A stretch of 64,000 bases of DNA from Alphaproteobacteria bacterium (lineage in GTDB: Bacteria > Pseudomonadota > Alphaproteobacteria > SP197), in NCBI GenBank assembly GCA_965228895.1, contig OZ245842.1:2304001-2368000 (forward strand). The letters are read 5' to 3'. Positions 56,367 to 58,458 of the stretch are shown in pieces. Every line of letters begins with the position of its first letter. Position 1 is the first letter of the stretch. Made by a program: the position numbers and the translations under genes. The notes under the pieces were generated by a model. It was not told the DNA's origin. It saw nothing but the letters and a program-made list of their open reading frames with translations, and did no database searches.

Positions 56367-57326
56367 TCAATCGCCAGCCCGCTCACTCGGCGTGGCTTCT
56401 TCGCGCAGCGACGCATTTAACAGGCGGATGTGTTCGACGCCGATACCGCAACAGCCGCCGATAGCCGTCGCGCCCTGGGCAATCCAGCCCGCCGCCTGCT
56501 CGACCAGGTCGGCCGGCGGAATGATGTCCTTGAACTGCCATTGCGGCATTTCGAAATAGCCGGAGTCCGGATAAGCCATCATCGGGCCGGACCAGTGTTT
56601 ACGAAGGATGTCGAGCGCCGGTCCGATCACGTGGACATTGGTGTGCATCGGCCCCATGACCGCGCCGCCGCCGGCCTGGATAGCCGCATCGACGACTTCG
56701 TCGAACGGATAGTTTTCCCAGGCGAAGGAGACGATCCGGCCGTCATCCTCCTGGCGTGCGCTCATGCCGACCCAGACGGGCAGACCGGTCTCGTGGGCGG
56801 CCTCGATCAGGGGTTTCATCTGCGACGGACGCGACATCATCTCCATGATGATGAGGTCGGCGCCGGCATCCTTGATGACGCCGGCGAGTTCGCGGGCGTT
56901 GGCCTGCAGTTGTTCGCTCGACGGCAAGGCATCTGGATCGTTACGCGCCTCACCGGGCACCATCGGCATCATGTGGGACATGGAGGCGGCCACAACGACC
57001 TCGCGGTCGCCGGCGGCCCGGTCGCGCGCTTCGCGGGCGATCTCGACGGCGCGCCGGTTGAGCGGCTCGACCTTGTCGCCCATGCCGGCCGGCCCCAGCA
57101 TGTTGCGGGAACTTGCATAGGTGTTGGCCGTGATCACGTCAGCGCCGGCGGCGATGTAATCCTCGTGGACCTGGCGCACGGCATCGGGGTCGACTTCGGT
57201 CGCCAACGCGCACCAGGCATCGCTGTTCATCGGGACGTCGCGGCGTTCAAGCTCGGTGCCGGTACCGCCGTCCAGAATGGCGATCCCGCCAGCCGCCAAT
57301 CGTGCGTGAAGGGTGCTTAGGTCCAT
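56367..57326 (-). CDS. Homocysteine S-methyltransferase family protein
   Basis: ILDGGTGTEL, AGADVITANTY, YPDSG, IGGCCG; RBS GGGGGAGG. Confidence 0.9.
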   Translation of the reverse strand: MDLSTLHARLAAGGIAILDGGTGTELERRDVPMNSDAWCALATEVDPDAVRQVHEDYIAAGADVITANTYASSRNMLGPAGMGDKVEPLNRRAVEIAREARDRAAGDREVVVAASMSHMMPMVPGEARNDPDALPSSEQLQANARELAGVIKDAGADLIIMEMMSRPSQMKPLIEAAHETGLPVWVGMSARQEDDGRIVSFAWENYPFDEVVDAAIQAGGGAVMGPMHTNVHVIGPALDILRKHWSGPMMAYPDSGYFEMPQWQFKDIIPPADLVEQAAGWIAQGATAIGGCCGIGVEHIRLLNASLREEATPSERAGD

Positions 57327-57353
57327 CGCCGCCTCCCCCGATGCGGAAAAGAT

Positions 57354-57652
57354 TGGTGCGCCCGCTAGGACTCGAACCTAGGACCCACTGATTACTCCAC
57401 CACCACGGCTTTCGCCGCCCCTTTCGGGTTTGTGGCCCGGACTATACCTTCGCCCTATCCCCGAGGGAACGTAGGCGGGTGCCGTCTAGTCTCTACACCT
57501 TCCCCAGGACATGCTCCCTGGGGCTTGGCTCGGGATTGCCACTGGCCAAAGGCCGCTGAGGGTTCCCCGAATTTGACACCTTGTCACCCGACGGTTTCCC
57601 GCCGGGGCTCCCAATCGAAAGTCAGTTGCTCTACCACCTGAGCTACGGGCGC
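57354..57652 (-). tRNA. tRNA-Lys(UUU), intron-interrupted; exon 1 57652-57618 (nt 1-35), exon 2 57394-57354 (nt 36-76)
   Basis: Joined exons GCGCCCG TA GCTC AGGTGGTA GAGC A ACTGA CTTT^TAA TCAGT GGGTC CTAGG TTCGAGT CCTAG CGGGCGC ACCA give a 76-nt cloverleaf with all four stems fully paired and encoded CCA. Confidence 0.93.
57395..57617 (-). ncRNA. Group I self-splicing intron (223 nt, IC3-like, no ORF)
   Basis: Minus-strand P AAATTCGGGGAA (57574-57563), Q AATCCCGAGCC (57537-57527), R GTAGAGACTAGA (57496-57485), S AAGGTATAGTCC (57450-57439); P3 GGTGTC/GGCACC; P7 GACTA/TAGTC; preceded by exon U, ends in G. Confidence 0.92.
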
Positions 57653-57663
57653 TACCGGGACGG

Positions 57664-57700
57664 GGTTTTAGCTGATTACACCGGTAATGCAATACGTCAA
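57664..57700 (-). promoter_or_regulatory. Putative sigma70 promoter of the tRNA
   Basis: Minus strand TTGCAT-N14-GCTAAAAC, resembling the Caulobacter-type GCTANAWC -10 element; an additional TTGACG lies upstream. Confidence 0.45.
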
Positions 57701-57702
57701 CG

Positions 57703-58458
57703 TCAGCCGCCGAAGACCTGCTGCAACAGCTCCGTCGAGCGCGCGACGGGATCGGTCCTGATCGCCGCTTCCTGTTCGGCCAGATAATGAAAGATGCCGT
57801 CTAACGTTCCATCAAGCGCATAGTCAGTCAGGTCCGCCTGAACATCCGGCACAAAGGGGATGCTGTCGTATTCGCCCATCATGGCGTCATAGGACTGGAT
57901 GGCGCCGACCTCGCTCAAGCTGCTGTCGACGATCGGGCGCATGCGTGTCTTCAGATCCTCGCTGGTCGTGCGCCGGAAATACTGAGTCGCCGCATCGTCG
58001 GGGCCGTTCAGGATGCCGCGCGCGTCATCCAGCGTCATCTGGTCGATGGCGCCGAAGAACACATCAATCGCCTCGCCCGATGCCTCTTCGGCGGCGCGGT
58101 TGATCCGGAGCTCCAGGTCATCGGCCATGTCCGACATGCCGACGGCCTTGAGCGCGTCTTGCACCGTACCCAGTGTTTCCGGCAGCGGGATATGAATCGA
58201 CGGGTCGGCGTTGAAGCCGTCGGCGACGCTGACCTGATCGACCGTGCGTTCGCTGGCGAGACGCAAGGCCTCACGCAAACCGGAATCAATTTCGCTGTTG
58301 CTGAGCCCGGCACCCAGATTGCCACCGCCATCGCTGGACCCGCTGCTGCCGAGATCGCCCAGCGAATCGGTAATCCCGTCAAGCAGACCATCGGCGCGTA
58401 CTGCGGCGGGCAGCGTCAAGCCGGCCACCACGCCAAAAACAAAGCTACGACGTCTCAT
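57703..58458 (-). CDS. DUF4197 family exported protein
   Basis: GLREAL, IHIPLP, INRAAEEA, DAATQYF, EAAIRTDP, LLQQVFG. Confidence 0.9.
   Translation of the reverse strand: MRRRSFVFGVVAGLTLPAAVRADGLLDGITDSLGDLGSSGSSDGGGNLGAGLSNSEIDSGLREALRLASERTVDQVSVADGFNADPSIHIPLPETLGTVQDALKAVGMSDMADDLELRINRAAEEASGEAIDVFFGAIDQMTLDDARGILNGPDDAATQYFRRTTSEDLKTRMRPIVDSSLSEVGAIQSYDAMMGEYDSIPFVPDVQADLTDYALDGTLDGIFHYLAEQEAAIRTDPVARSTELLQQVFGG

Follow-up and report, generated by a model that had tools for sequence, protein, structure and literature searches.

A very probably functional IC3-type group I intron within the anticodon of the only tRNA-Lys(UUU) gene of an alphaproteobacterium

The stretch of DNA considered here, referred to as the window, comprises 64,000 nucleotides (nt) of the forward strand of an Alphaproteobacteria bacterium genome (assembly GCA_965228895.1, contig OZ245842.1, positions 2,304,001 to 2,368,000). 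On its minus strand, between 57354 and 57652, lies the genome's sole gene for the lysine transfer RNA (tRNA) with the anticodon UUU, and this gene is very probably split between anticodon positions 35 and 36 by a functional group I intron of the IC3 type. A first-pass annotation had read the locus as a group I ribozyme inserted in tRNA-Lys(UUU) at 35/36, with tRNA halves of 35 and 41 nt around a 223-nt insert, P, Q, R and S elements, P3, P7, a GAAA-capped P2, two GAAA hairpins in P9, a guide that fits the exact site, and a gene likely to be overlooked by standard annotation. This interpretation is supported in each testable respect, the structural elements being present in the sequence, in the Rfam alignment, or in both.

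The 5′ exon (57618..57652; 35 nt) comprises tRNA positions 1-35, that is, the acceptor strand, the D arm and the 5′ strand of the anticodon stem, and ends in C32, U33, U34 and U35 (GACUUU). The 3′ exon (57354..57394; 41 nt) comprises positions 36-76, opens with UAAUCAGU, which holds U36-A37-A38, and runs through the T arm to an encoded CCA. Both halves were delimited from the sequence and by ARAGORN analysis of the joined exons. Between them, the 223-nt insert (57395..57617) begins with CGAUUGGGAG and ends with GGUGGAG, the last base (57395, intron position 223) being the omega-G, and its identity as a group I intron is indicated by the covariance model RF00028, homology and covariation. Scripted joining of the exons produced a perfect 76-nt tRNA-Lys(ttt) according to ARAGORN, and the precise 35/36 junction, with U at position -1 and G at omega as confirmed on the sequence, is the sole junction that gives back a 7-nt anticodon loop. 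No open reading frame (ORF) of at least 80 amino acids overlaps 57354-57652, so that the intron carries no homing endonuclease gene of that size and does not bear this mark of a mobile intron.

RF00028, the group I intron model of Rfam, aligned over its full length (model positions 1-253) with 57628-57415 at 48.3 bits and an E-value of 3.1e-11 in a permissive search of 601 nt; over the 5.53-Mb genome the match had an E-value of 6.7e-11 and was the only one. An Rfam search of the window at default gathering thresholds returned no match because 48.3 bits lies under the gathering score of 50 bits for this model, and ARAGORN at default settings found no tRNA in the window. Without recognition of the intron, the genome would seem to have no tRNA for AAA. 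Annotation is likewise lacking for the homologous genes of one phage record and over 1200 plasmid records.

The predicted fold, numbered from the first intron base, lies entirely on the minus strand. P2 (57587..57606) has 8 base pairs (bp; intron 12-19 with 24-31) and a GAAA cap at 57595-57598, and was recognized in the sequence and in the minimum-free-energy (MFE) fold. The 6 bp of P3 join a 5′ strand at 57575..57580 (intron 38-43) to a 3′ strand at 57478..57483 (intron 135-140), both supported by covariation. Within the P4-P5 domain (57530..57570), which was placed by Rfam alignment, P4 is formed by the P and Q elements (57565-57570 with 57530-57535; intron 48-53 with 83-88) on the evidence of the sequence and the same alignment, and encloses P5, P5a and L5; covariation supports P5 itself, which pairs approximately intron 57-60 with 76-79 and is extended by a distal hairpin. 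The P6 hairpin (57497..57529), indicated by covariation and the MFE fold, has a CCCC/GGGG base and a variable tip and pairs intron 89-90 with 120-121 and 95-101 with 110-116. In P7, the 5′ strand GAGACU (57488..57493), which represents the R element and carries a bulged A126, pairs with the 3′ strand AGUCC of the S element (57439..57443), that is, intron 125 and 127-130 with 175-179. The R segment GUAGAGACUAGACGG and the S segment AAGGUAUAGUCC, together with P4 and P4′, were positioned by the Rfam alignment. P8 (57451..57477), supported by covariation, pairs intron 141-145 with 163-167, continues into a distal hairpin and has a CCUA...UAGG motif at its base. The three-way P9 element (57400..57435), seen in covariation and in the MFE fold, consists of a stem (57432-57435 with 57400-57403; intron 183-186 with 215-218) and two GAAA hairpins, P9a (intron 190-199, GAAA at 57422-57425) and P9b (intron 201-212, GAAA at 57410-57413). 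MFE folding reproduced the local hairpins P2, P5a, P6, P8 and P9. By analogy with known group I introns, P7 would be the guanosine-binding helix, and the CCUA...UAGG motif resembles a tetraloop receptor, a role that would correspond to the architecture of the Azoarcus intron.

Comparative data provide the principal support for this fold. A hand-drawn structure, with P7 treated as a pseudoknot, was tested on a structure-blind MAFFT alignment of 27 Lys pre-tRNAs. Pairing was possible in 94.5% of 1974 cells, compared with 83.3% in column shuffles (0 of 500 reached the observed value) and 31.7-46.2% when partners were slid, and both sides had changed in 37 of the 76 pairs against 22.8 expected from the shuffles. 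All eight pairs of P2 showed compensatory changes; only 76% of its cells pair because MAFFT misaligns part of the helix. The corresponding values were 99.4% with three compensatory pairs for P3, approximately 80% with compensatory changes for P5, 99% with three of four pairs compensatory for P6, and 85% with two for P8, while P9, P9a and P9b paired in 93, 99 and 100% of cells and had two, two and four compensatory pairs. P4 was paired in 100% of cells and nearly invariant, and all five pairs of P7 were invariant and 100% paired among 26 distinct sequences. Compensatory changes were also seen in the acceptor, anticodon and T stems of the tRNA. In the two congeners, the intron differs from that of the window at 11-12 positions, all of them intronic, mostly in L5/P5a, distal P8 and L6, and none in the exons, P3, P4, P6 or P7. 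The P3-P4-P6-P7-P8 core with its P3/P7 pseudoknot, which is expected of a group I intron, is conserved among the homologues, and the fold is backed by the covariance model and the comparative data, rather than by folding energy.

The internal guide sequence, GAUUGGGAG (57608..57616; intron 2-10), was identified by a direct count of pairs, and it fits the 35/36 site through both P1 and P10. P1 comprises 4 bp (C32-G10, U33-A9, U34.G8 and U35.G7; 57608-57611 with 57618-57621), the U35.G7 wobble lying at the 5′ splice site next to a second wobble, U34.G8, and P10 comprises 5 bp (U36.G6, A37-U5, A38-U4, U39-A3 and C40-G2). A GG(G/A)AG guide with a candidate 4-bp P1 is present in 16 of 16 introns inserted at 35/36; Sphingomonas-type relatives have the guide GGAAG and a single wobble. 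Introns at 34/35 have the guide GGAG and a 3-bp P1 closing with U34.G, so that the wobble used by that lineage is the inner wobble of the window's P1. These latter guides were read from the printed sequences, as the script had picked a spurious downstream G in several rows. With two adjacent U.G wobbles, the intron of the window is well suited to studies of how group I ribozymes choose between neighboring wobble pairs.

The assignment to 35/36 itself follows from the need to restore a 7-nt loop. It is highly improbable that a real intron uses other splice sites and yields a different tRNA, for example by cleavage after U33 and after G221 to give the anticodon AGU, even though ARAGORN accepted that alternative for the near-identical locus L038 and accepted several alternative joins of such sequences, and, when run on the raw region with introns allowed, proposed an Arg(tcg) tRNA with a 221-nt intron. 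U33 pairs with A9 and not with a G, leaving no wobble at that point; in the Arg(tcg) model the anticodon stem is mispaired and the intron ends in a base other than G; a Thr tRNA with A34 is not expected in bacteria; and a U(-1)/G(omega) junction giving back CUUUUAA is available in 24 of 24 complete Lys-type loci.

The dependence of the cell on the interrupted gene is suggested by the tRNA complement of the genome. ARAGORN identified 49 tRNAs, including a Lys(CUU) at 1,226,108, and found no other Lys(UUU) gene anywhere in the genome. An independent genome-wide search, in which a YUUUURN loop had to cap a stem of 4 bp or more and lie close to a T-arm motif, gave four matches, none of them tRNA-like. 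AAA accounts for 28.5% of the lysine codons (6816 of 23,948) in ORFs of at least 400 codons, and under the wobble rules a tRNA with C34, such as Lys(CUU), does not read AAA. Since there is no second Lys(UUU) gene and C34 is barred from AAA, splicing would be essential for AAA decoding and presumably for the cell, as the first-pass annotation had foreseen for the case of a single gene. Lysine would then be one of the few amino acids for which decoding can rely on a ribozyme.

A plausible course of splicing can be proposed from these features. Transcription of the minus strand would yield a pre-tRNA in which the intron folds into its P3-P9 core, with the GAAA tetraloops on P2 and P9 acting as braces. 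The 5′ guide GGGAG would pair with exon residues C32-U35 and place the U35.G7 wobble at the cleavage site, where an external guanosine bound at P7 would attack after U35. The guide segment GAUUG would then align U36-C40 as P10, allowing the free 3′-OH of U35 to attack after the terminal G (57395). Ligation of the exons would create the anticodon loop CUUUUAA and release the 223-nt intron, and AAA decoding would depend on this reaction. Catalysis, its exact chemistry and tetraloop docking are all inferred, and on the present evidence the element is probably a functional ribozyme.

RNA data bearing on this course were also sought. RNA runs with words of 57300-57720 were exclusively metatranscriptomes, with shares of 0.05-0.10, and X1, X5, X7 and X8 were compared at 85% likeness. 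Their contigs came from other organisms only. Some represent intron-less tRNAs that share one half with the gene; X7, for example, has one with a Lys(CUU)-type junction, and X1 and X5 have a different tRNA. Others are pieces of related introns, and in record 13 of X7 (196 nt; 13 differences, 1 gap) the upstream flank, exon 1 and adjoining intron sequence form one continuous stretch. No contig in X1, X5, X7 or X8 joins exon 1 to exon 2 of this gene. The Logan contigs derive from RNA libraries in which carry-over of DNA is possible, and they therefore show neither splicing nor its absence.

Several observations weigh against a functional intron. A consensus scan found no sigma-70-like promoter and no intrinsic terminator; the folding energy (z = -1.55) is not distinctive; the RF00028 score falls 1.7 bits short of the gathering threshold, with an E-value far beyond chance; P1 has 4 bp with two adjacent U.G wobbles, and pairing alone leaves the cleavage site unfixed; P4 and P7 do not vary, so that covariation is neutral on both helices; and splicing itself is deduced from the sequence. 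The score just below the gathering cut-off would also suit a decayed, non-splicing relic in a tRNA pseudogene, with AAA read in some other way. This explanation is very improbable in a genome that has no other Lys(UUU) gene, uses AAA at the frequency given above and has a C34 Lys(CUU) that wobble rules bar from AAA; moreover, the core helices are intact and conserved, the within-genus differences spare core and exons, and covariation over 27 homologues indicates selection for the fold. That the fold is intact but splices in vivo only with a host protein or chaperone, and is not strictly self-splicing, is also improbable: P1 is short, the intron is small and G+C-rich, and many group I introns behave in this way in vivo, but the three GAAA tetraloops could stabilize the fold unaided.

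The relationship of the putative ribozyme to known tRNA introns was examined by a BLAST search of 60 related genomes and the window's own, which gave matches in 8 of the 61. Both other species of the genus carry the intron in the same tRNA and at the same site, with 95% identity (L003 and L004), and genome G043 has a 223-nt intron in tRNA-Lys(UUU) at 34/35 (L005). Two genomes have tRNA-Leu(UAA) introns at 34/35 (E-values of 8.6e-22 for L006 and 8.3e-12 for L007), one has a tRNA-Arg(CCU) intron at 36/37 (L008; E-value 3.4e-9), and the remaining match (L009) covers 34 nt outside any tRNA. An alignment of seven pre-tRNAs had a mean column identity of 73% and long invariant core blocks. The BLAST matches and this alignment show common ancestry between the window's intron and the classical tRNA introns of bacteria.

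Like the window's intron, the Leu(UAA) intron "Leu.3Ug" (IC3; cyanobacteria, plastids and proteobacteria) is small and ORF-less, interrupts the anticodon loop and has U at -1 and G at omega; the two can be aligned through common J3/4-P4, P4′-P6, R and S elements and the P9 hairpin GCGAAAGC, but differ in site (34/35 of Leu(UAA) versus 35/36 of Lys(UUU)) and in guide sequence. The alphaproteobacterial Arg(CCU) intron "Arg.5Ug" belongs, as does the intron of the window, to a class of tRNA introns of approximately 200 nt (IC3), and L008 aligns with the latter. Both Arg.5Ug and the Azoarcus intron Ile2.5Ug are inserted at 36/37 rather than 35/36, and unlike them the window's intron has an extra GAAA hairpin, P9a, in its three-way P9. 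The Azoarcus tRNA-Ile(CAU) intron (IC3) has GAAA tetraloops on P2 and P9 and a very short P1, a likeness of general architecture rather than of compared sequences. Homology to the Leu.3Ug and Arg.5Ug introns would place the intron in subgroup IC3. Introns of this kind are well known, and that of the window, a close relative of the textbook tRNA introns, leaves the understanding of group I introns unchanged.

The IC3 label of the classical tRNA introns is that given by Williams, who cites the group I intron database (Williams, 2020; bioRxiv 10.1101/2020.01.27.920355). The same study recognized four classical settings (Leu.3Ug, Arg.5Ug, fMet.2Ug and Ile2.5Ug), which held 65.2% of its 5292 introns, and added 17 new settings for a total of 21, using the mapping logic applied here, namely exon regularity, U at -1 and G at omega. 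Its text names only Leu, Arg, fMet, Ile2 and Leu.3Cg, the full settings appearing in images (Table 1 and Fig. 3); in that text "Lys" occurs only within another word, the settings table and figure being images, and "Asn" and "Asp", the tRNAs for which the first-pass annotation mentioned 35/36 insertions, have no occurrences. A tRNA-Lys(UUU) intron at 35/36 may be among the tabulated settings. A search of article text, outside supplements and figure tables, found no publication naming a group I intron in a bacterial tRNA-Lys(UUU). One article describes as "group I introns" inserts of 22-49 nt in the tRNAs of cyanobacteria, Lys(CTT) among them (PMC5733544); their length falls well below that of a group I ribozyme, and they were set aside. 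The available portion of the tRNADB-CE paper mentions Burkholderia Leu(TAA) introns only (PMC2686568), and a further article, as far as its accessible part goes, is about tmRNA introns (PMC11915505).

The first-pass annotation had also regarded a Lys(UUU) intron as unusual, and this expectation was not borne out: such introns occur in both congeners, in 24 of 52 scan records, in 3 of 151 genomes of the class and in a Gordonia phage, and the window's intron is one of many. The scan, an exact-pattern search of 185,579 species genomes (TGACTT, 98-128 nt, GTGTAGAGACTNNACGG), gave 52 records, a sample biased by the pattern itself, whose hosts were assigned by enumerating junctions with U or C at -1 and G at omega and submitting the joined sequences to ARAGORN. 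Fifteen records fall at tRNA-Lys(UUU) 35/36, with a GG(G/A)AG guide and 55-95% identity to the window's intron, and nine at tRNA-Lys(UUU) 34/35; one more (L029), cut by the end of its locus, is a probable Lys 34/35. There are 19 Leu(UAA) records (18 assigned by eye from printed flanks and L043 by ARAGORN), single records at Lys(CUU) 35/36 (L012), Thr(UGU) 34/35 (L016, from a Pseudidiomarina metagenome-assembled genome, MAG) and a CAU tRNA 36/37 (L048), and five without an assigned host (L013, L024, L026, L032 and L050). In L013, L026 and L050 the upstream flank resembles the 5′ half of another tRNA and is followed by a longer P1-P2. Record titles place the Lys introns in hosts that include Sphingomonas, Sphingobium, Parasphingorhabdus, Rhodospirillales, Hyphomicrobiales, Rhizobiaceae, Pseudolabrys and Beijerinckiaceae, with a Gammaproteobacteria MAG, an Acidobacteriota MAG and Owenweeksia; the first five, the Gammaproteobacteria MAG and Owenweeksia are among those with the 35/36 site. 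The cores of L038 and L053 are identical to those of G001 and G043, respectively, and these may be the same genomes. A less biased sample, in which RF00028 (E-value of at most 1e-5) was applied to 151 genomes of the class that shared neither family nor genus, yielded 17 matches: 10 in Leu(UAA), two in Arg(CCU), three in Lys(UUU) including this genome, one apparent Leu(CAA) at 33/34 (L100) and one cut by a contig end.

The phage example is Gordonia phage Daredevil (L108; NC_048021.1, 1501-1815), which has an unannotated tRNA-Lys(UUU) with a 238-nt homologous intron at 34/35 and 71% identity to the window over query positions 1-270. Its GGAG guide and 3-bp P1 match those of the 34/35 records, the window's site lying one nucleotide downstream, and RF00028 gave no match at this locus at an E-value of at most 0.001. 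The phage tRNA lacks an encoded CCA and its T-loop, AUCGAAA, is unusual; with the integrase gene approximately 570 nt away, the tRNA may belong to attP.

The history of the interrupted gene was addressed through synteny and phylogeny. A homocysteine S-methyltransferase-family gene (56367-57326, minus strand) sits downstream of the tRNA; it has many paralogues, with 11 matches (E-value of at most 1e-20) in this genome and as many as 14 in related genomes. In G010, a member of the same family of bacteria, an intron-less tRNA-Lys(UUU) adjoins the orthologous homocysteine S-methyltransferase gene, which marks the intron as a probable insertion into a normal tRNA locus and fits intron gain, or gene replacement, in the window's genus. 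The comparison of the family, in which G011, G008 and G003 yielded no locus, found a tRNA-Lys(UUU) at 2 of 27 loci outside the genus around the best homocysteine S-methyltransferase match (adjacent in L073, further off in L082), and with so few loci synteny lends weak support.

A maximum-likelihood tree of the intron core (49 rows, 178 columns) was built without L012, L013, L016, L019, L024, L029, L032, L043, L048 and L050, whose cores did not match the regular expression used. A branch with 97/96 support divides 20 Leu introns and one Arg intron from 27 Lys introns and the long-branched L026. The Lys side shows no division of its 34/35 and 35/36 rows into two clades; 28 of the 44 inner branches are unresolved, and approximately unbiased (AU) tests neither rejected nor showed monophyly of the 34/35 rows (p = 0.41), the 35/36 rows (p = 0.33) or all Lys rows (p = 0.23). 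The tRNA body of the window matches those of two intron-bearing genes, from a Hyphomicrobiales MAG (L061; 68/73) and a Gammaproteobacteria MAG (L034; 67/73), more closely than the intron-less tRNAs of its own family (64/73 and 63/73), a weak hint that the exons may have travelled with the intron. A related copy that adjoins a phage integrase bears on spread of the whole gene. It is conceivable, though rather doubtful, that one ancestral Lys intron slid by one nucleotide between 34/35 and 35/36 and that the interrupted gene spread horizontally, exons included. Such sliding would be accompanied by a guide altered at one base, from GGAG to GG(G/A)AG, and by the movement of one U from the 3′ to the 5′ exon. 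If true, this would be a clear-cut example from nature of a sliding group I intron. As natural material, the two lineages, at 34/35 and 35/36, are suited to learning how a guide sets, and can shift, a splice site.

Plasmid pCTX-M3 (L109; NC_004464.2, 3986-4290) carries an intact, unannotated tRNA-Leu(UAA) with a 213-nt group I intron at 34/35, which scores 36.8 bits with RF00028 and whose joined exons are read by ARAGORN as tRNA-Leu(taa). The gene sits in a module with aac(3)-IId, an AAA-ATPase gene and IS26. In 1263 plasmid records, chiefly from Escherichia, Klebsiella and Salmonella, this tRNA-Leu stretch recurs with approximately 69% identity to the query, and its 85-86% identity to the alphaproteobacterial tRNA-Leu loci L102 and L103 hints at the origin of the DNA flanking the resistance module. 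Among the literature matches listed, none linked "group I intron" with aacC2, tmrB, ISCfr1 or IS26. In the window's own genome (G000), ARAGORN also found a selenocysteine tRNA (tRNA-SeC; C1:4493192-4493286) and a permuted, two-piece transfer-messenger RNA (tmRNA; C1:1205059-1205369) with the tag ANDNEAFAVAA, which fits an alphaproteobacterial genome.

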